Sequence record: JX128258
DNA length: 64,000 nucleotides
Reading direction: 5' to 3' (one strand)
Source: Escherichia phage ECML-117
Shown: one piece after another, positions 43,812 through 58,755 of the stretch
Layout of the letters: every line of letters begins with the position of its first letter
Numbering within the stretch: the stretch's first letter is position 1
The notes under the pieces: model-generated
The model's input: the letters and a program-made list of their open reading frames with translations, nothing else
Database searches by the model: none
What the model was told of the DNA's origin: nothing
Translations under genes and position numbers: made by a program

Positions 43812-44786
43812 TTAAAAATACTCCATATCGGTAATATCACGGAAGCACTTATACAAGGCAGAGCGCGGCACGTCAACGATGCCAAAGTTAAAGAATTTAT
43901 ATGTCAGATATTTGTTGCGATAGTTCTCGCGATTCTCCCAAAGCATTTTTCTCTCTGCCATAGGCATTGAACCAGCGGAGACGCGGAAAGGAATCATTTC
44001 GCCTTTCTCATCAACATATTTTGGATTGACAACCACAAATGATCCAAGGTATCCTTTCGCAACTAAGCCTTCAGCCTCTTTCGAACGCTTAGTGCGACCC
44101 AACTCATCAATGAATGCCTCGTTGTTGTTCTCCATCATCTCAACGAAGTCTATGATCAATCCTTCTTCATCGGTCCACGGCTTGTCCTTCCACACATCAC
44201 GTGACTTTGGCGTCGCGCGGCCATGCTTGTATTTGCCCGTCCAAGACTTGCCATACAAGCCTTCATAGCCAAGCTGGTCTGCTTCGATTTGCATTGCCGC
44301 GTACTGTTCCATATTTTCGATGTTTCGATATTCGAGAGCGCGAAGGAATGGGCGTCGACCATGGTTGATGAGGTGCTGATTGACTTCAGCAACTCTAGCG
44401 CGATAGTTTGCATAACGCTTTTCAAAAGGCAAATCAGGGTCGCTGAAGTCATCAAACACCCACCATGTAAAGTTAGTGATTGCATCAGTATTCATGCAGG
44501 CTGTATAGGCTTGCTGCATGACGTTCTTGTCGTTCGGATTGCCGTCAATAAGCTCTCCATCAAGGCCATGAATCAATTCACCCAAAAAGAGGAACTCTTT
44601 TTTGATTTGAATGTTGCGCAGAGCCATGCCGGACGTGCCCATTGGCAAGTTGTCATACGCCATCGCGCGTATGCCATCGACCTTGAAGGACAACCCGCAA
44701 GGCAGCGGCACATCTTCGCCGCGCTCGATAATTTGCTTACGCTGGCAACCCTTCATTGGTTTTAATGCTTTGATTTCCCCTGCCAT
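43812..44786 (-). CDS. ATP-dependent DNA ligase
   Basis: 324 aa; adenylation motif I FKVDGIRAM (KxDG). Confidence 0.7.
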   Translation of the reverse strand: MAGEIKALKPMKGCQRKQIIERGEDVPLPCGLSFKVDGIRAMAYDNLPMGTSGMALRNIQIKKEFLFLGELIHGLDGELIDGNPNDKNVMQQAYTACMNTDAITNFTWWVFDDFSDPDLPFEKRYANYRARVAEVNQHLINHGRRPFLRALEYRNIENMEQYAAMQIEADQLGYEGLYGKSWTGKYKHGRATPKSRDVWKDKPWTDEEGLIIDFVEMMENNNEAFIDELGRTKRSKEAEGLVAKGYLGSFVVVNPKYVDEKGEMIPFRVSAGSMPMAERKMLWENRENYRNKYLTYKFFNFGIVDVPRSALYKCFRDITDMEYF

Positions 44787-45379
44787 TATTCGCGACCCTC
44801 ATTCATTACTTGTTCCATTGCGTAGGCATAAGCCTGATCAGTCGATTTGATGAACGTGCCGTTGTACATCACCCCTTTACGGTCCTTGATGTCTTCATAG
44901 GCGGCTTGAGCGCAATCAGAAAGTCGAAGTCCATAATCATGCGCTACGCCGGAAAGATAATCCACAGCGGCCATGATGGTGACATCAATATCCATGCTCT
45001 GATTTTTAGCAATGGCGTCGCCAAGTCGTCCGAGCGTCTTTGCCAAGCGAAGGATAAAGGAATGAGGGTGAGCGCCTTTGTCAGCGCAACCGCCGCCGTT
45101 AATGTCTTCGATTTTTGCGCCATTTTGCGCGGCAAGAATAGTTAACACAACAAGGCAATCGCCGATGTCGTCCTTGATGGCGGCTTGTAAATCACAGATG
45201 GCCTGCTCTGTATATCCGATTTCAGGGTCAAAGAACACAAGGTCATGTAATTGATCAACGTGGTCGGTCAACTCCCCAAACTCGCTAATAAGCTTCGGGT
45301 ATTGGTCTTTAAGGCCGCAACCTTTGATGATGTTACGGTCAGAAGCCCACTGGCGAATGTTTGCATAAATCTGGTTCAT
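44786..45379 (-). CDS. MazG-like nucleotide pyrophosphohydrolase candidate
   Basis: 197 aa all-helical; EFGELTDH and DIGDCLVVLTILAA segments resembling MazG metal-binding helices. Confidence 0.45.
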   Translation of the reverse strand: MNQIYANIRQWASDRNIIKGCGLKDQYPKLISEFGELTDHVDQLHDLVFFDPEIGYTEQAICDLQAAIKDDIGDCLVVLTILAAQNGAKIEDINGGGCADKGAHPHSFILRLAKTLGRLGDAIAKNQSMDIDVTIMAAVDYLSGVAHDYGLRLSDCAQAAYEDIKDRKGVMYNGTFIKSTDQAYAYAMEQVMNEGRE

Positions 45380-49706: not shown

Positions 49707-52590
49707 CTGGATACACCTGTTTGATCACGTCGACGATAAACATGTCAATGCCTTCAAGCTTGCGGCCTTTCATCAGGAAGAATGCACCGTTCCCAACGTT
49801 CTCTGCGATGTATTTCCCGTACTTCTGGAACTTCTCTGGGCGAATCCTGAAGCGCATTGGCGAGTCTGTCGAATCATCCTTGCACATAAGGTCGATGAAC
49901 TGGGTCTCAATCTTGTTTCCAAACTTATCCTTATCCGCATAGCGGCCATCAGCTTGAAGACCCTTTTTAAGTTTGCCGTGCTTTGTATAAATGCCGCGCT
50001 CAAGACGTTTACGGATGCGTGTTGCTTCGTTTTCATCTGCCAGCACTTTCTTGGTCAACTTGCCGATTACTATTGCACGCTCGTCATCGCCGACTTCCTT
50101 CATCTGGCGTATTGAAGCACCGGAAGTAACGCCAATCAGATATGGGTCATTATACGCCCAACCGAACTTGGTGTGCATCTCTGTAAGGTCGCCGTATTTG
50201 ACTTCAGCATTTGCCAATGCGTCCTTTTGTTTTTGCGTTAAGGTTCCGGCTTCACGTGCTTCGATGTACTTCATCGCCTTCACCATTCCGTACCCTTTAG
50301 CGTTCATTATGCCGCCAATTAGCTTTCCGTTAGCGATGGTCCAGTTCATTGAAGAGTGATCAGGGTCGATTGGCACATAATCCACGCCTTCCTTCGCAAG
50401 TTCACGTAATATCGCAATCGTCTGGTCTTCGTCCTTAGCAGCGCGTAAGCAAGCAGCAGCAAATTCCAACGGGTAGTGTCGTTTAAGCCACAAGGTCCAG
50501 TAGGTCACGACCGCGTATGACACGGAGTGTGACTTGTTAAAGCCCCATGACCCGAACGTCGCCATCGCCTGCCAAAGCTTTCTTGCATCCGCTTCCGGTA
50601 CGCCGTTATTTATTGCGCCTGCAACGAAGTCTTCGCCAAGCTTGTTAAAGTATTCCTCACCCTTACGACCTGACATCGCCTTACGTACAGCGGATGTTTT
50701 CGCCCAGTCAAATGAACCAATCTCTTTAACCACGGCCATGATTTGCTCTTGGTAAAGAAACACGCCGTAAGTCTCTTTTAAGTACGGCTCAAGTTGCGGT
50801 ACGTCGTACTCAATCGGCGCACGTCCTGCCGCGCGTTCAATGTATTTCTGGGCCATACCGGACGACAACGGGCCAGGTCGGCCAAGTGCTGTCAGGTTAT
50901 CGATTTTGTTAAAGTTATCAACGTGCACAAAGTTGGTCACTGAGCGTACAGCGTCGCCTTCAAACTGGAAGATGCCTGACATCTTGTTTTCGTTAAGGAT
51001 GTCAAGGACGCTTTGGTCATCAAGCTTGATTCCGTACAGCGTTTCAGCATCTATCACACCAGTATCAGAAATGATTCCGAGGGTACGAAGACCCAATGCA
51101 TCAAGCTTCAAAAGGTTAAGGTATTCGCTGTCAGGCTTATCAATTTGCGCAATCCCTTCCGCCGTCACTGTACAGTAATCAGAGATTGGGTCATTACACA
51201 CGATGATTCCCGCTGCGTGAACGCCAGTGTGGGAAGGGTGAATCTCAAGGTCACCCATGCATCGCGCGGCATCGGGATATTTAGCCACAAACTCTTGGCC
51301 CGTGGTCGTTGTTGCAAAGGTATCCTCCAGGCCGTGACCATAACGGGCGTCACCAGATGAGTATTCAAGCAATGCGTTTTTAATGTTGGCCGTTTCGTGA
51401 TATCCAATGTTGAATTTCTTACCAACTTGAGCCATTACTGAGTTGGCCTTAAGCGTGTTGATGTTGCCAAGCTTTGCAACGTTCATTTCGCCGTATTTTT
51501 CTTTAAGGTAATCAAACACCATATAGCGTTTGGTATCCTCAAAGTCAATATCAATATCAGGAAGGTCGGCGCGGCTTACGTCGATGAATCGGGCGAACAG
51601 CAGCTTATACGGGATTGGGTCAACTTCCGTGATGCCGAGGCAATAACAAACCAGTGAACCAGCCGATGAGCCGCGAGCGGGTCCGACGAGCATTTTTGTT
51701 TTTGCAAATCGTACAAGGTCCGCTACCACCAGAAAGTATGAGTCGAAATCTTTCAGCTGAATCTGGTGAATCTCTTCGTTGAATCGGTCCTCATATTCCT
51801 GAGTCCATTCTTTGATGTGACCTGCCTTAAGGCGGTACTCCATACCCTCACGAGCAAGCTTTACCATGTCACCAGCAAGGTGGATAATCGGTGCCTTGCG
51901 CAGCTTCAGGTCAAGTCCCACGATTCCGTTTGCAATATCAACCGCATTGGCAGTTGCTTGATTCAACTCATCTTCGGTCAGGATTCCTTTAAGCTGTTTG
52001 CGCAAGTCTTCCGCGTCAACAATGCAGTGCGGCTTGACCGTGTCGCGAACTTCCCAAGCATAAGCAAAGTCAACGTGCTCAGGTGAAGGCATGTGGTTGT
52101 ATCCGGTTAAAACCAGCGGCCTTCCGTTGCTGCGGTGAGCCAATACCTGGCGCTTGGCCAAAAGGAACGATGATGGGTTGACGTCTATATAATCGTAGTC
52201 CTCTGGCCGCAGCAACTCCACGGCACCGCCACAGAATTTAACGACTCCATCGAGCGCCCCGAACTCTGCACGGGTCAGTCCGCCGCGTTGTGTTGCAAGC
52301 GTGGTCGCGTTGTAAAAGGACTTCAGGTCAAGCGCCAATATCCAAGCCTTCGGTTTGAATCCATTTTTCGGGTCCGCATCAGGGTCGATGATTGGAATTT
52401 CCATGCCGAACATAGGCTTGATATCATTCTTCTGACATTCCTTTTCCCAGCGAACGTGACCCCATGTATTATTATCAACTAATGCCGCGACTTCGCAGCC
52501 CAACTCTTTGAGCCGTGCTATAATTTCAGGATGCCGTCCATATACTTCTTTGAACGTGTAACCGCTGCGAACTCTCAATTGTGGAAACAT
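49693..52590 (-). CDS. dnaE: DNA polymerase III alpha-type (DnaE-like) polymerase with PHP domain
   Basis: 965 aa; N-terminal PHP-like region, central palm-like region (GPARGSSAGSLVCYCLGITEVDP). Confidence 0.75.
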   Translation of the reverse strand: MFPQLRVRSGYTFKEVYGRHPEIIARLKELGCEVAALVDNNTWGHVRWEKECQKNDIKPMFGMEIPIIDPDADPKNGFKPKAWILALDLKSFYNATTLATQRGGLTRAEFGALDGVVKFCGGAVELLRPEDYDYIDVNPSSFLLAKRQVLAHRSNGRPLVLTGYNHMPSPEHVDFAYAWEVRDTVKPHCIVDAEDLRKQLKGILTEDELNQATANAVDIANGIVGLDLKLRKAPIIHLAGDMVKLAREGMEYRLKAGHIKEWTQEYEDRFNEEIHQIQLKDFDSYFLVVADLVRFAKTKMLVGPARGSSAGSLVCYCLGITEVDPIPYKLLFARFIDVSRADLPDIDIDFEDTKRYMVFDYLKEKYGEMNVAKLGNINTLKANSVMAQVGKKFNIGYHETANIKNALLEYSSGDARYGHGLEDTFATTTTGQEFVAKYPDAARCMGDLEIHPSHTGVHAAGIIVCNDPISDYCTVTAEGIAQIDKPDSEYLNLLKLDALGLRTLGIISDTGVIDAETLYGIKLDDQSVLDILNENKMSGIFQFEGDAVRSVTNFVHVDNFNKIDNLTALGRPGPLSSGMAQKYIERAAGRAPIEYDVPQLEPYLKETYGVFLYQEQIMAVVKEIGSFDWAKTSAVRKAMSGRKGEEYFNKLGEDFVAGAINNGVPEADARKLWQAMATFGSWGFNKSHSVSYAVVTYWTLWLKRHYPLEFAAACLRAAKDEDQTIAILRELAKEGVDYVPIDPDHSSMNWTIANGKLIGGIMNAKGYGMVKAMKYIEAREAGTLTQKQKDALANAEVKYGDLTEMHTKFGWAYNDPYLIGVTSGASIRQMKEVGDDERAIVIGKLTKKVLADENEATRIRKRLERGIYTKHGKLKKGLQADGRYADKDKFGNKIETQFIDLMCKDDSTDSPMRFRIRPEKFQKYGKYIAENVGNGAFFLMKGRKLEGIDMFIVDVIKQVYPDGNK

Positions 52591-53186: not shown

Positions 53187-53738
53187 TTATGCAGTGTACG
53201 GAGTACCGTCTTGATTCAAGCGCACGATAAACTTCAAATCAACGCCGATGATTTCACGCGTATCAAAGATCACATAGTTGTAACGACGCTGACCAGCAAT
53301 ATTTGGGTTGGTGTGAGAGTCGGTCACAACTTCCTGCGCAACCTGAATGCCTTCTTCTTTAAAGAACTTGCGCCATTCAGCAAGTTCAGCGGCAGTCACG
53401 TGCATACCAAGATGGCTAACCTGATTGTCGTGCGCATCGATGTATTCGATGTTTTCGTGAATCCAGTTGCAACCTTTTGTATAGTCAAGAATTTCAAGCT
53501 CAAGAGGCTTACCAGCGCCGCCATCGGTGCCGTTGCCAGCCTGATAGTTGAAGCGCAAGTCAGCTTCGTTGGTGCAATCGCCGCGCTGACCCTTAAAGAC
53601 ATCAGCTTCAAATACGCGACCAGTAGCAACAACGTGATCATGGAACCATTCTGTCAGGCCGATTTTAGCCAGGAAATTCTGTGCGCGCTGAGCACCTGGA
53701 ATTGACAGGGCGATTTGTTCAATTTTAAAGTGTGGCAT
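53187..53738 (-). CDS. hypothetical protein (183 aa)
   Basis: Track ORF; no confident motif. Confidence 0.5.
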   Translation of the reverse strand: MPHFKIEQIALSIPGAQRAQNFLAKIGLTEWFHDHVVATGRVFEADVFKGQRGDCTNEADLRFNYQAGNGTDGGAGKPLELEILDYTKGCNWIHENIEYIDAHDNQVSHLGMHVTAAELAEWRKFFKEEGIQVAQEVVTDSHTNPNIAGQRRYNYVIFDTREIIGVDLKFIVRLNQDGTPYTA

Positions 53739-53834: not shown

Positions 53835-54518
53835 TTATTTCCCAAATGGAATATCAGTACCAGACATAAAACGCCATGCGCCCGTAATTAAGATATGGCG
53901 AATGAAGTCAGCAATTACTTGCGGCTCAGTCTCCAATCCATTCATCAACGCCTTTTTCTGGTATTCAGCAGCATACTCAGGAGTCCAGCCGCGAGTCGCG
54001 CAAACAGCATCTTCAATCTGTTTGGACATACCAGTGCCGCGCAACTTGTTAGGACTAATAGAAAATACCGTGATCCCGTATTTAGGCGTAAGCTCGTGAG
54101 CCATCTGCTTGCTAATCATGAGCGCAGCAGCCTTGGAAGCATTATAACACAAGCTGGACGTCATAGGAATATGCGCAGCGTTGGAAACGATATTGATCAC
54201 AAAACCTTTGTTGTCGATAAGACTTTTCAGCGCGGCTTGAGTCGTGTTGACGAAAGAGAAGGCGTTGGTGTGCATAACGCGATTGAACTCTTCGTAGTTA
54301 ACATCTTCAAACCAGTTGTTGGAGTTGACGCCAGCACAGTTGATCAAGCCTTCTACATCATATGGGCTTAAAATTTCTTTCATCTGTTTCGCGTCGCGGA
54401 CGTCATATCCGTATGCTGAATCGATTCCAAGCACGTTATGACCGTAAGCGCCAAGGGTGTCAAAAATAGATTTACCAAGACCGGAATTGGAACCTGTTAC
54501 AACAATTACTTTTTTCAT
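53835..54518 (-). CDS. short-chain dehydrogenase/reductase (SDR)
   Basis: 227 aa; VTGSNSGLGKS cofactor-binding motif and YNASK catalytic motif. Confidence 0.65.
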   Translation of the reverse strand: MKKVIVVTGSNSGLGKSIFDTLGAYGHNVLGIDSAYGYDVRDAKQMKEILSPYDVEGLINCAGVNSNNWFEDVNYEEFNRVMHTNAFSFVNTTQAALKSLIDNKGFVINIVSNAAHIPMTSSLCYNASKAAALMISKQMAHELTPKYGITVFSISPNKLRGTGMSKQIEDAVCATRGWTPEYAAEYQKKALMNGLETEPQVIADFIRHILITGAWRFMSGTDIPFGK

Positions 54519-54583: not shown

Positions 54584-55456
54584 CTATTTATTGAAATTAA
54601 TATTGTGGGTGTTGACGAGACGTTCACACATGGCGCTGTAAACACCATCGTCGTGTATAGAGTCTTCGTGCTTCAGGCCGCTGATTGCAAAGCGTGTAAG
54701 CTTGACAATCTTAAGCTCGAACAGATGCCACATGTGGTAGTCTTCCGGCGTTTTCAACGTTACGCCATTAGGGAAAAGCACCTGCATAACCTGGCCAACC
54801 ATCACGGCATTATCGCCATAGACAGCGTTGCGCTCACGGAAGGTTGCTGCCATTGCATCAAGAATATCGGCGGCAGTTGCCGGAGATTGTTCAACTTCCA
54901 CAGTCTTAGTCTCTTCTTGTCCTGTTGCGCTTGGATCAATTGCTAATTGTTGCACCACTTCACCTGCCTTGCAAAGATTAAATGTAAAAGCGATTTTATT
55001 TTGAGCAACGGAATTATAATACAATGCTTCATCTTGCATCCGCGCGAGCACGTCTTGTCGGTCGTCGAATACATTGATGATTCGATAATCGCCGTGCCGC
55101 AATGCGTGCGATAGCCATGCAGATTTCATAATAGTTGATGGACGTTTGTCGCCATAGTCTCTCATCTTGATTGTAAATTCATCAAAAGGAAAAACATTGT
55201 CCAGACGTTCAAAAGTCACTTGTCTGTATTTTTCTGGCCTTGCAGTCCAATATTCAACCGCCTCACCGCGAAGAGATGCCGACTCTACTGCTGATGCAAT
55301 GCGAGGATAGAACTGATCATAACCAATACCGCTGTGATAGTCATCATAGTCTGACAACGGACCTGCCACCTTTATGCGGTCCAAGCGCCAACGGTCATCA
55401 AACAGCGTTCCGTCAAGGTCGAATACGTTTAATATTTGGTTATTTTTAATACTCAT
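54584..55456 (-). CDS. HAD-superfamily hydrolase/phosphatase
   Basis: 290 aa; N-terminal motif I FDLDGTLF. Confidence 0.55.
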   Translation of the reverse strand: MSIKNNQILNVFDLDGTLFDDRWRLDRIKVAGPLSDYDDYHSGIGYDQFYPRIASAVESASLRGEAVEYWTARPEKYRQVTFERLDNVFPFDEFTIKMRDYGDKRPSTIMKSAWLSHALRHGDYRIINVFDDRQDVLARMQDEALYYNSVAQNKIAFTFNLCKAGEVVQQLAIDPSATGQEETKTVEVEQSPATAADILDAMAATFRERNAVYGDNAVMVGQVMQVLFPNGVTLKTPEDYHMWHLFELKIVKLTRFAISGLKHEDSIHDDGVYSAMCERLVNTHNINFNK

Positions 55457-56256
55457 CCCTTTGACACTCCATCTTTAGCAACTGGATTGTTGGTGATTGG
55501 CGCGGCATCCCAAAACTGGATGCGCAACTCTTCTTGCTGTGCCGTGGTATCCATCCAATCACGATACCAAGGGCAATGGGCTTTGCCATGACGAGGAAAC
55601 GCGCATTTACCCATACCGATGCATTGCGGCTGTAGTAAAGGATTAGCCCACGGGTGCACCTTGAGGACTTCCGCAACCATTGCGCGAAATACTTCTTGAT
55701 ACTCGCCTTGGGTGCGCGTGCACAAGCGGTTGGAAGCCATCTGTTGCAGCGTGCGCAAGTTGAACTTTGCCATGATATGCGTTTGCATATTAGAAGGCAA
55801 CACGGCACGTGCATCTTGAATCTCTGCGCCAGCCGCGCGAAGTTCTTGGTATAGGGCGTCAATGGTCGCCATTGCATCATCCCAGGTGTTAGCCAACTTC
55901 AAACGCTGCTCGTCGATTCTCTCGCCGATAACCCTGTCAGGGTCGTCATACTCAAACGCTTTCGGACGAATCGCATCAAACGCAGAAGACTCCTGAGCGC
56001 GGCTGGTGCGTTCTTGATATGCGCCTGTGCGTGTGCGTACCATCTGATGGGTCATGTTCTTTGATACATCTGTGATATCAAAAATATAGTCCACAAAGTC
56101 AAAAGGTGACTTGATTGTATCGAGCATGTAGCGCCAATGCTCTTGCTTCTCTGATTCCGTCATCTCAGAGACAGGCTTACCAGTCATGCGCGTGTTCTTT
56201 GTTTCCAGCAAAAGGTCAAGTGCATCTTGGGTGTATCGAATTAATTCAACTTTCAT
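55453..56256 (-). CDS. ThyX-like (flavin-dependent thymidylate synthase fold) protein with non-canonical motif
   Basis: 267 aa; SPFDFVDYIFDITDVS and RTRTGAYQERTS align by eye to ThyX TPFEHIVFTFHVKAP and RHRIASYNELS; the RHR-x7-S signature is altered. Confidence 0.4.
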   Translation of the reverse strand: MKVELIRYTQDALDLLLETKNTRMTGKPVSEMTESEKQEHWRYMLDTIKSPFDFVDYIFDITDVSKNMTHQMVRTRTGAYQERTSRAQESSAFDAIRPKAFEYDDPDRVIGERIDEQRLKLANTWDDAMATIDALYQELRAAGAEIQDARAVLPSNMQTHIMAKFNLRTLQQMASNRLCTRTQGEYQEVFRAMVAEVLKVHPWANPLLQPQCIGMGKCAFPRHGKAHCPWYRDWMDTTAQQEELRIQFWDAAPITNNPVAKDGVSKG

Positions 56257-56269
56257 TTTAATTATCCTA

Positions 56270-56716
56270 TTAACGGTAATTCACTAGTTGCTGATCACCA
56301 GAGAAGGTGCAATGATAAACGAATTGTGCGTTATAAAGCAACTGAAAACTTTTCTTTGGTTCACTATTAGCACTCATCGATGTGAATACTTCTGCACCGG
56401 AACGGTTTTCACCGATTAAGTTGACAAAGCCGCCAGTTGTGCGAGGTTGAACGAAAGTGAAGCGTTGCATCCACGGAGTCCGGTTGGCACCTTTACCTGT
56501 GAATCCTTGAATCTGAATATTCAGACCTTCTTGCTCGTTCACACCGATGTAAGTGGTAATCTTTGCACCAGTCGTTGCTGCGGTCTTCCCGTCCATCGCT
56601 TCGCAATCGTAAACAGCGATTGAATCGGAAGTGCGGATGGCAGCTTCAGTCGCTTCCATATACATGGTGCCGAGAATAGCAGTTGCGGCAAGCGCGATTC
56701 CAGTGATTCGTTTCAT
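56270..56716 (-). CDS. secreted protein (148 aa)
   Basis: Signal-like N-terminus MKRITGIALAATAILGTMYMEATEA. Confidence 0.5.
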   Translation of the reverse strand: MKRITGIALAATAILGTMYMEATEAAIRTSDSIAVYDCEAMDGKTAATTGAKITTYIGVNEQEGLNIQIQGFTGKGANRTPWMQRFTFVQPRTTGGFVNLIGENRSGAEVFTSMSANSEPKKSFQLLYNAQFVYHCTFSGDQQLVNYR

Positions 56717-56781: not shown

Positions 56782-57777
56782 TTATTTATTAGCAATATAA
56801 GCAAATTTTTGATAGTTATTTGCTTTGATGAGTTTTTCGACTTCAACAAGGTCATGAGCGACGTCATCAAGCAAAATGTTTCGCCAGGTAGCGAATCTAC
56901 CGACACTAAAAACGTTCAAATCCATAGTCAGCTGCAGGAGTAGGGCGTGTCGCAAGTCTTTCGGAATGTCGACAATCTTGCCATATTTCTGGTCGACCTT
57001 TTCAACTTCTTCAAGAGCGATATCACTCCATGAAAGGCCAAATGCCGTCAACACTTCGTCGACTTCTGCGCGAAGCTTCATGTCACGGTAACGAGTGATG
57101 CCTCCAGCGGCTTCAACTGCAGCTTCACTTACGCTGACTAAAGGAATTGTTTCAATGATAAGCGTGTCACCAGTAATTGATGCGCGGTAAGTTCTGACGG
57201 AGTAGTCAGGGAAGTAAATTGTCTGATACAAATCACACTTACGTTTAATCTTAAAGCGGTAAACGCGAATGTTTGCTTTATCAAATGAAAAATCAAGCTT
57301 TTGATCAATTCCAGCAAGCTTCATCATGACTGGCAGCGGCGACGTGTTGATGATTGGCGTCTCGCTATAGCCGCAAAGAGTATCAACAGGAGTATTAAAG
57401 AATATGCGGTCACCCAGTTTGTCGACAAGCTGATCATAAAAGTCATCAGGCGCAATATAACGCGTTGCAGTCTTAAGCTTCATGATTGAACGGCTGCCAA
57501 ACTGATTGGTGACCTTCATGGAATACATATTGGCAAGGTTAATTGGGCAATGGTCATGGTAGTAGTTGCCGCGAAAATACACAGCCTTGTCAACTGTCAC
57601 GGCCTTAAAGGGGATTCCGGTAATACGGCTTACTTCTTCGCCACGGAAGCGTAGCAATGCCTTGTGCTGTTGCGCTCGTTCCCCTGCTTCGTACACAACA
57701 GAGTTCGGGAAGTGACACGCTGTGATAAGTCCTGCCAGTCCGCCGCCGATAATCATTACAGGTTGTTTCATGTTCAT
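56782..57777 (-). CDS. FAD/NAD(P)-binding flavoprotein oxidoreductase
   Basis: 331 aa; N-terminal IIGGGLAGL Rossmann motif; C-terminal GRFATWRNILLDD resembles the C-terminal motif of UGM/amine-oxidase-type flavoenzymes. Confidence 0.5.
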   Translation of the reverse strand: MNMKQPVMIIGGGLAGLITACHFPNSVVYEAGERAQQHKALLRFRGEEVSRITGIPFKAVTVDKAVYFRGNYYHDHCPINLANMYSMKVTNQFGSRSIMKLKTATRYIAPDDFYDQLVDKLGDRIFFNTPVDTLCGYSETPIINTSPLPVMMKLAGIDQKLDFSFDKANIRVYRFKIKRKCDLYQTIYFPDYSVRTYRASITGDTLIIETIPLVSVSEAAVEAAGGITRYRDMKLRAEVDEVLTAFGLSWSDIALEEVEKVDQKYGKIVDIPKDLRHALLLQLTMDLNVFSVGRFATWRNILLDDVAHDLVEVEKLIKANNYQKFAYIANK

Positions 57778-57909: not shown

Positions 57910-58755
57910 TTATTCCGCTTGATCACCGTCTTCGGCATCGTCGTTGGATTCAACATCGACAAACTCGATGTGACCCATCTCTTCCAGCTTGCTCAGGTAG
58001 GAGCGAACGGAAGCGCCAAACAGTTGATCTTTAACTTTTTCGCCCAGCTCATCGATAGACTGCGCCACGCCAACTTCGCCTTCTTTGATCGCCGCCAGAA
58101 CGCGTCCACGGGTGGAGTGCTCTTGCGGCTGGCTCAGGCCATTGCCAGTGTAGATGAAGTGAGTAGCTTTTGCACGACGCTGACCGTTTGCCTTTTTAGC
58201 GGCCTTACGTTCTGCGATGGCTTTGCGACGTTCTTCAGCTTCTTTCTTACGCTGTTCTTTCTGCTGTTCTGCAGCTTCTTTCGCCGCAATCTTAGCAGCT
58301 TCACGCTCTGCCTTGCGTTTCGCTTTAGCTTCTTCTTTAGCCTTCTCTTTTTCGGCCTTCGCTGCAGCACGGGCTTGATCACGCTCTGCTTTCTTAGCAG
58401 CAGCTTGCTCAGCTTTCAGACGCTTGGCTTCTTCTTTAGCCTTCGCCTTTTCGATTTCTTTTGCTGCTTTAGCGGCTTCACGCTCTGCCTTCTTAGCAGC
58501 AGCCTTTTCTGCACGCTCTTTGGCTTTCTTCGCTGCTTCTTCAGCACGTTTCTGAGCCTTCTCATCAGCAGCCTGCTTACGTTTCAGTGCAGCTTCTTCA
58601 CGCTTGGCTTGTTTTTCCTGCTCACGCTTTTGGCGTTTTTCTTCGGCTTCTTTCTTTTTAGCCAGGCGTTTTTCTTCAGCCACGCGACGACGTTCTGCTG
58701 CAGCTGCTTGTTTTTCTTCTTTAGATAATACTTTGATTGCTTCGGCCATGTTCAC
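57910..58755 (-). CDS. Lys/Ala/Glu-rich (TolA-like repeat) protein with C-terminal globular domain
   Basis: 281 aa; about 180 residues of KAEEKAA-type repeats; the plus-strand ORF 57664..58728 is its low-complexity antisense. Confidence 0.55.
   Translation of the reverse strand: MNMAEAIKVLSKEEKQAAAAERRRVAEEKRLAKKKEAEEKRQKREQEKQAKREEAALKRKQAADEKAQKRAEEAAKKAKERAEKAAAKKAEREAAKAAKEIEKAKAKEEAKRLKAEQAAAKKAERDQARAAAKAEKEKAKEEAKAKRKAEREAAKIAAKEAAEQQKEQRKKEAEERRKAIAERKAAKKANGQRRAKATHFIYTGNGLSQPQEHSTRGRVLAAIKEGEVGVAQSIDELGEKVKDQLFGASVRSYLSKLEEMGHIEFVDVESNDDAEDGDQAE

Follow-up and report, generated by a model that had tools for sequence, protein, structure and literature searches.

A ThyX-family gene in the replication module of phage ECML-117

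The window analysed here, a stretch of 64,000 nucleotides from Escherichia phage ECML-117 (sequence record JX128258), carries on its minus strand, at positions 55453-56256, an open reading frame (ORF) for a ThyX-like flavoprotein of 267 residues, which forms a conserved module with a flavin adenine dinucleotide (FAD)-dependent oxidoreductase and a HAD phosphatase that has a DUF3310-like C-terminal region. Between positions 52000 and 60000 the window, which stems from a Wifcevirus, is 94-97% identical to coliphages of this genus (such as WFH, CWP003, FEC19, Mansfield, Bas98/99), and the ThyX-like ORF is annotated as thymidylate synthase in all GenBank records of these relatives. The gene is housed in a leftward replication module, with a Dda-like helicase on one side and a PolIII-alpha-type polymerase on the other; an AGGA ribosome-binding site lies 8 nucleotides upstream of it, and its TGA stop codon shares the tetranucleotide ATGA (55453-55456) with the ATG of the next gene. 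In an earlier note, made from the sequence alone, the protein had been aligned by eye to flavin-dependent thymidylate synthase, and it had been proposed that an altered RHR-x7-S signature, reading RTR-x7-T/S, might reflect altered substrate chemistry, for example synthesis of a modified pyrimidine nucleotide, rather than plain production of deoxythymidine monophosphate (dTMP).

The predicted protein matches the Pfam family Thy1 (PF02511) over residues 5-203 with E=6.7e-30 and a score of 104.7 bits, against a gathering cut-off of 24.8, and PHROG 85, labelled 'thymidylate synthase', with E=1.4e-37; its score with the NCBIfam equivalog TIGR02170 thyX is 81.4 bits, under the curated cut-off of 87.9. 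Solved ThyX chains of Thermotoga maritima and Mycobacterium tuberculosis match the protein at E about 5e-5 (phmmer). An AlphaFold model built with 42 homologues as input has a pLDDT of 84.7 (residues 75-90, the active-site loop, are modelled with low confidence) and superposes in Foldseek on T. maritima ThyX (1O26) with E=5.5e-10 and a TM score of 0.73 on the target, which places the model in the ThyX fold. Fold and Pfam family are thus shared with characterised ThyX enzymes such as T. maritima TM0449, M. tuberculosis Rv2754c and PBCV-1 A674R. Profile search and structural modelling, both of which the earlier note had put forward as checks, confirm that the ORF encodes a genuine ThyX-family member, a family assignment already known from the existing ThyX annotation, and the alignment made by eye proved correct, with R74-T75-R76 of the phage protein falling on R78-H79-R80 of the T. 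maritima enzyme.

Conserved and replaced residues of the active site

Residues were matched through a phmmer/HMMER alignment of the ThyX-like protein to the T. maritima ThyX chains, and canonical residues are given in T. maritima numbering. The ThyX signature RHR-x7-S, attributed to Myllykallio 2002 in PMC2826268, reads RTR-x7-T in the phage protein, where both arginines are kept and the histidine and the serine are each replaced by threonine (R74-T75-R76, codons CGC ACA CGC at 56029-56037; T84 at the Ser88 position, codon ACC at 56005-56007; both on the minus strand). The full sequence of 267 residues was inspected and holds no RHR tripeptide elsewhere, so that neither a displaced canonical motif nor a lack of ThyX homology, the two observations that the earlier note had named as contrary to its reading, was encountered. 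RTR is present in all 120 nearest homologues, and the x7 position is T in 107 of them, S in 11 and A in 2, which bears out the RTR-x7-T/S form described previously. Because every one of the 120 carries RTR, the tripeptide can be considered fixed in this clade, and a sequencing accident, chance or a strain-specific substitution is ruled out as its source.

The positions that contact or activate deoxyuridine monophosphate (dUMP) in ThyX, namely R78, R80, S88, R90, R147 and R174, are occupied in the phage protein by R74, R76, T84, R86, R150 and R177, the threonine retaining the hydroxyl of Ser88, while Q71 and E82 correspond to Q75 and E86; the dUMP-binding arginines and the equivalents of Gln75 and Glu86 are therefore common to both proteins. 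These aligned dUMP-site residues fall in invariant or near-invariant columns of two clade alignments, and the catalytic positions are under strong purifying selection across more than 100 homologues. R177, the equivalent of R174, presumably reads the O4/N3 face of uracil, R74 is the equivalent of R78, the arginine at flavin N1/C2=O, and the residues N166, R168 and R74, which we take to be FAD-contact positions of the T. maritima enzyme, are all kept. In the latter enzyme R78, R80, S88 and R90 have been shown to hydrogen-bond dUMP (PMC3498832).

On the other hand, six positions are replaced in the phage protein: His53 by I48, His79 by T75, Asn85 by Q81, Ser88 by T84, Tyr91 by A87 and His178 by R181. 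I48 (codon at 56113-56115, minus strand), T75 and A87 (codon at 55996-55998, minus strand) are all invariant in a 42-sequence alignment of the clade. The protein thus lacks both His53 and its partner Tyr91, which, according to Ulmer et al. 2008, reportedly belong to an extended ThyX motif. His53 has been described as stacked on both the pterin of the folate and the reduced flavin and as held in place by Asn85 and by Tyr91, to which it is hydrogen-bonded, and flavin oxidation is stated to be 1000-fold slower when Tyr91 is mutated; Tyr91 and Ser88 have been described as 'strictly conserved' and critical, and both have been proposed as acids for the flavin-carbinolamine hydroxyl (PMC11940539). 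Since the dUMP-contact residues are kept and His53 and Tyr91 are lost, the alignment points to a nucleotide site that is intact and to a folate-gating and reduction apparatus that is not.

An exhaustive HMMER search with a threshold of E<=1e-3 yielded 1,668 cluster representatives, and residues were counted on the 131 best full-length ones. The His53 equivalent is present in just 15 of these and is a residue other than His in 116, and it co-varies with the Tyr91 position: 13 of the 15 representatives with His also carry Tyr, and 114 of the 116 without it carry a residue other than Tyr. The middle residue of the motif may be T, H, Q, N or S among the same representatives, so RTR is one state of a variable position and the coupled loss of His53 and Tyr91 the deeper signature. 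RTR as a diagnostic mark can in fact be ruled out, given this variability and the combination of RHR with Ile48 in 2 of the 80 contigs that bear the module described below; the partner genes track the loss of His53/Tyr91 and not that of His79. Canonical phage ThyX proteins, such as those of Clostridium phage phiCP26F and Bacillus phage phi18-2, have His, RHR, Ser and Tyr at the respective positions. In this regard, the inference from RTR alone to altered chemistry, which the earlier note had put forward as a possibility, is weak, because the middle residue varies, the serine-to-threonine change keeps the hydroxyl and the dUMP residues are retained. A check of long ThyX-like homologues for fusion partners was uninformative, as it turned up inteins and N-terminal extensions without annotation and nothing else; in two metagenomic homologues the inteins lie within the ThyX-like domain itself.

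Compared to ThyX, the phage protein has about 60 extra C-terminal residues, and this extension, absent from the T. maritima enzyme, holds three of four cysteines that are invariant in the 42-sequence alignment (C179, C212, C218 and C228; 55573-55722, minus strand). The four cysteines represent a putative metal site, and all of them are found in 72 of the 131 representatives. The same four-cysteine pattern occurs in 'ThyX-like' proteins of actinophages such as Mycobacterium phage Penelope2018 gp69, in which the His53 and Tyr91 equivalents are Leu and Phe; these proteins differ from that of the window in having RQR with Ser instead of RTR, in their greater length with N-terminal extensions, and in the absence of the FAD partner from the organism tallies of Gordonia and Mycobacterium.

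A three-gene module and its distribution

Upstream of the ThyX-like gene, at 56782-57777 on the minus strand, lies the gene for a FAD-dependent oxidoreductase of 331 residues, assigned by an N-terminal GxGxxG motif and by structural modelling to the superfamily of amine oxidases and UDP-galactopyranose mutase (UGM). Searches of Pfam and NCBIfam, and a sequence search of the PDB, gave no match for this protein. Its model (pLDDT 85.9) matches UGM 4DSH as well as monoamine oxidase (MAO) and L-amino acid oxidase (LAAO) in Foldseek at E~1e-10; UGM 4DSH is the top match (E=1.9e-10), with MAO, LAAO and nicotine oxidoreductase nearly equal and TM scores of 0.5-0.6. The counterpart in phage Mansfield is annotated as UDP-galactopyranose mutase; since the model is about as similar to UGM as to flavin amine oxidases, the protein is best described as a probable amine-oxidase/UGM-superfamily flavoprotein and should not be named a mutase. 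Downstream, at 54584-55456 on the minus strand, and with its ATG overlapping the stop of the ThyX-like gene, is the gene for a HAD (PNKP-type) phosphatase of 290 residues with a DUF3310-like C-terminal region, for which Pfam HAD_PNKP (E=8e-8) was the sole match in searches of the PDB, Pfam and NCBIfam. Its C-terminal region gave no Pfam match in the window protein, DUF3310 being detected in the counterpart from Cronobacter phage Ss1, and the literature searched gave no known function for DUF3310. PHROGs labels the protein 'polynucleotide kinase/phosphorylase', and a P-loop was not seen on inspection by eye.

When IMG/VR was searched with a clade profile, 80 viral contigs were obtained, with ThyX-like proteins of 39-59% identity, whose neighbouring genes were determined by local tblastn. 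Unlike characterised ThyX, the phage protein is flanked by the FAD oxidoreductase, immediately upstream in 79 of the 80 contigs, and by the HAD fusion, downstream in 76 of the 80; beyond the latter come an RNase T-type exonuclease and then PolIII-alpha. The same trio is found in Pbunavirus and in podoviruses of about 40 kb that infect Cronobacter, Vibrio and Ralstonia, with stop/start overlaps within the trio in Cronobacter phage Ss1 as well, and in the Rhizobium phage RHph_Y65, of 207 kb, it is spread over no more than 6 kb. Among 360 phage-collection records of the FAD protein, 292 are from Pseudomonas, 25 from Escherichia, 9 from Serratia and 8 from Rhizobium, tallies that parallel those of the ThyX-like genes without His53; in the organism tallies of this tblastn search there were no phages of Gordonia or Mycobacterium (RQR type) and none of Bacillus or Clostridium (canonical ThyX). 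The idea that the module is simply a passenger of the PolIII-alpha replication module is weakened by RHph_Y65, which bears the trio and uses a family-A polymerase. RHph_Y65 also carries dihydrofolate reductase, with no ThyA found, and genes for a PurA-like adenylosuccinate synthetase and an HD 5'-deoxynucleotidase adjoin its family-A polymerase, a gene set reminiscent of 2-aminoadenine (Z-genome) phages.

Around this fixed core the accessory genes vary. In the window they include a short-chain dehydrogenase/reductase (SDR) of 227 residues (53835-54518, minus strand; Pfam adh_short, E=2.6e-31), which in NCBIfam matches sugar and polyol dehydrogenases best, and a possible glyoxalase/VOC-like protein of 183 residues (53187-53738, minus strand), which rests on a weak match to Pfam Glyoxalase_4 (E=0.091) and on an InterPro note in phage Mansfield. 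These two genes, placed after the HAD gene and before the exonuclease, come and go as a pair and are present in approximately half of the 80 contigs; the pair is absent from Pbunavirus, where ORF70 is a variable accessory gene. Between the FAD and ThyX-like genes the window has an ORF of 148 residues (56270-56716, minus strand) with a hydrophobic, signal-like N-terminus, for which neither a family match nor a homologue in the 80 IMG/VR loci was found. Further along, at 57910-58755 (minus strand), is a low-complexity protein of 281 residues rich in Lys, Ala and Glu, annotated as 'TolA' in relatives, of which only the C-terminal 90 residues or so are conserved with Pbunavirus ORF66/gp64. A MazG-like pyrophosphatase of 197 residues (44786-45379, minus strand; weak Pfam match, E=0.011) adjoins the DNA ligase gene; it is conserved in Pbunavirus, a 'pyrophosphatase' is annotated beside the ligase in Vibrio phage PVA7, and the enzyme could shape the deoxynucleotide pool.

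Thymidine modification in related phages and the possible product of the module

It has recently been reported by Yee et al. (bioRxiv 2025) that the DNA of Pbunavirus F8 resists enzymes with TG in their site and that at TG sites F8 and 14-1 contain previously unreported derivatives of thymidine, with masses of 362 and 390 Da, which replace about a quarter of T; Pbunavirus was given in this work as an example of phages without genes previously implicated in modification (PMC12191111). By computation, 27-28% of T precedes G in F8 and 14-1, and therefore, with about a quarter of T modified, essentially every TG would be modified. Both masses are those of 5-hydroxymethyldeoxyuridine (5-hmdU) joined, with loss of water, to a tetritol or a pentose, and C-C linked isomers fit them equally well. 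Wifceviruses, for their part, resist most of the restriction systems tested. A tblastn search with E. coli ThyA as query gave no match with an E value under 0.85 in F8, 14-1, 200 kb of RHph_Y65 or the window; no second thymidylate synthase was detected by this means in these trio-bearing phages, so the ThyX-like gene is the only recognisable transferase of carbon to pyrimidine C5 in their genomes.

Between F8 and 14-1 the ThyX-like proteins are 93.8% and the FAD proteins 97.3% identical, compared to 79% for the HAD fusion and 56.7% for ORF70, a Pbunavirus-only protein of 434 residues without a Pfam match. The ThyX-like and FAD proteins can be dismissed as the source of the difference between 362 and 390 Da, because they are nearly identical in the two phages and the specificity of the modification should lie elsewhere, the HAD fusion and ORF70 being candidates on the basis of their divergence. 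Near-identity of the ThyX-like and FAD genes is expected of a shared first step and is equally compatible with no involvement at all. ORF12.1 and ORF88.1 are missing from F8.

From the observed fold, residues, module and distribution we infer a substrate, dUMP, a product and a link to DNA modification, and the evidence leans slightly towards a module that does not simply make dTMP. The reading that we favour, to which a little under half of our belief attaches, is that it produces a C5-functionalised dUMP such as 5-hydroxymethyl-dUMP (5-hmdUMP). In this proposal, the gene belongs to a phage-specific branch of the family that has lost His53, Tyr91 and His79 and, in its own sub-branch, has gained the four-cysteine site; the ThyX-fold flavoenzyme, acting as the middle gene of the module with the FAD oxidoreductase and the HAD/DUF3310-like protein, would bind FAD and dUMP and add a carbon unit to uracil C5. 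Without Tyr91 and His53 the carbon would still be transferred, the canonical flavin-driven reduction would be altered, and the product released would be a C5-functionalised dUMP, most simply 5-hmdUMP. A product of this type would seed the thymidine hypermodification of Pbunavirus, and the same product could account for the restriction resistance of Wifcevirus. An altered product is favoured because the residues for folate gating and for the flavin-oxidation step are lost; because an obligate, mobile three-gene module is present that is lacking beside canonical ThyX; because the core is fixed and the accessory genes around it vary, a pattern also seen in hypermodification clusters already known; and because the documented thymidine hypermodification of relatives has no other candidate first enzyme. 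The modified pyrimidine suggested in the earlier note thus finds real, if circumstantial, support in the loss of His53/Tyr91, the three-gene module and the hypermodified thymidine of Pbunavirus in the absence of a ThyA-type hydroxymethylase.

A ThyA-family hydroxymethylase is said, with reference to Lee et al. 2018 and 2021, to carry out the first step of known thymidine hypermodification. The role proposed here resembles that of such enzymes (SPO1 gp29, T4 gp42), in which reduction is replaced by hydration and the product feeds base modification, and ThyA-type hypermodification clusters also combine a fixed core with variable tailoring genes. Their fold, however, is unrelated, with a cysteine nucleophile where the ThyX-like protein would use flavin as the carbon relay, and the 5-hmdU kinase and aGPT pyrophosphorylase genes of ThyA-type systems were not detected among the window ORFs. 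Within the ThyX family, PolB of Streptomyces polyoxin biosynthesis is the only known neofunctionalised member, its substrate preference having changed in a secondary pathway (PMC5954106); it differs from the phage protein in being bacterial and in still methylating, and its structure (4P5A) shows only weak similarity to it (E=0.14).

Several observations weigh against an altered product. We know of no ThyX-family hydroxymethylase, so that this one would be the first, and the literature searched contained nothing on such an enzyme or on ThyX in Pbunavirus or Wifcevirus. Modification of TG with other T left unmodified implies a sequence-specific step at the DNA level whatever the ThyX-like enzyme makes, since a product entering the nucleotide pool would need full replacement of T followed by reversion at all sites other than TG. 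Every dUMP-binding and activating arginine is kept, the change from serine to threonine is conservative and the middle motif residue is naturally variable. In RHph_Y65 the gene lies beside those for dUTPase, ribonucleotide reductase and dCMP deaminase, an ordinary context for a dTMP synthase. A Pfam search of the 42 hypothetical ORFs of the window, outside which about 4 kb of the phage genome lies, produced just two marginal DUF matches (E about 0.007-0.009) and detected neither a 5-hmdU DNA kinase nor an aGPT pyrophosphorylase, and no glycosyltransferase or nucleotide kinase either. Finally, TG is missing from the 14 EcoRI and 9 EcoRV sites of the window, so that a modification confined to TG would not explain the resistance of Wifcevirus, whose modification chemistry or context, if any, may be different from that of Pbunavirus. 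EcoP1I, the site of which we take to be AGACC, with neither TG nor CA, has 79 sites in the window. In the window 26.9% of T is followed by G, and TA is under-represented (observed/expected 0.68).

Much of this suits a substantial competing possibility, which we rate as somewhat short of an even chance, namely that the protein is a divergent phage ThyX that still makes dTMP from dUMP, methylenetetrahydrofolate and a reductant, raising dTTP during fast lytic growth. Compensation within the clade would then offset the substitutions of H53, Y91 and H79; the FAD neighbour could be the dedicated reductase of a two-component enzyme, and other enzymes, acting at the DNA level, would be responsible for the thymidine hypermodification of relatives. 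The strong homology and fold, the retained arginines, the threonine hydroxyl at the Ser88 position, the variability of the motif histidine and the annotation as thymidylate synthase in all GenBank records are consistent with such an enzyme, as are its standing as the sole thymidylate-synthase-type gene in the trio phages searched, the neighbours in RHph_Y65, the failure to detect known 5-hmdU pathway genes by Pfam and the TG-specific pattern of Pbunavirus, with T kept elsewhere, which suits post-replicative chemistry. It is less easily reconciled with the lack of three residues that are said to be conserved and critical in the enzymes characterised so far or with a score under the NCBIfam equivalog cut-off, and a stand-alone synthase needs no obligate, translationally coupled oxidoreductase and phosphatase partners across unrelated phages. 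Moreover, the hosts E. coli and Pseudomonas have, as is generally known, a ThyA of their own, and some Pbunavirus enzyme must functionalise the C5-methyl of thymine, for which neither an oxygenase nor a ThyA-type candidate was recognised.

An improbable alternative is that the protein acts on another substrate (dCMP, UMP as in Streptomyces PolB, or a nucleotide sugar) or serves as a non-catalytic nucleotide-binding or regulatory subunit whose flavin chemistry has been lost. While the loss of H53, Y91 and H79, the low confidence of the modelled active-site loop and the weak PolB match would fit this role, the invariance of R177, with its presumed reading of uracil, and of R86 (= R90), the retention of N166, R168 and R74 as presumed FAD contacts and the purifying selection noted above argue against it, and PolB is just a distant relative.

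It is very unlikely, to judge from our own weighting, that an aldose is joined directly to dUMP C5 by a folate-independent flavin-iminium pathway, in which a flavin N5-carbinolamine/iminium with an open-chain sugar would replace the methylene, perhaps with help from the UGM/amine-oxidase-like partner; attack by dUMP on this iminium would be followed by flavin-driven reduction of the adduct, and a sugar phosphate would be taken off by the HAD enzyme to leave a 5-(polyhydroxyalkyl)-dU. One precedent is UGM, which forms flavin-sugar iminium adducts. In such a pathway loss of the folate-stacking His would be expected. The computed mass of dU plus a pentose, minus water and plus 2H, is 362.13 Da, which equals that of the F8 nucleoside, and there is a further precedent in the use of free formaldehyde by ThyX via a flavin iminium/carbinolamine (PDB 7NDW, 7NDZ).

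In the literature searched we found no description of the four-cysteine site, of the conserved FAD-oxidoreductase and HAD partners, or of a loss of His53, Tyr91 and His79 throughout the clade. The interest of the gene arises less from RTR than from two questions, namely how the modified thymidine of Pbunavirus is synthesized and what makes Wifcevirus resistant to restriction. Pbunaviruses belong to the Pseudomonas phages most widely used in therapy, hypermodified thymidine has only recently been found in their DNA, and for the first step of its synthesis the ThyX-like gene, together with its two partners, is so far the most concrete candidate. If the favoured reading is true, this would be the first ThyX-family enzyme to do something other than methylation, paralleling the use that phages have made of ThyA; if dTMP is made instead, His53, Tyr91 and the motif histidine would be dispensable, which bears on the mechanism of ThyX and on inhibitor design.

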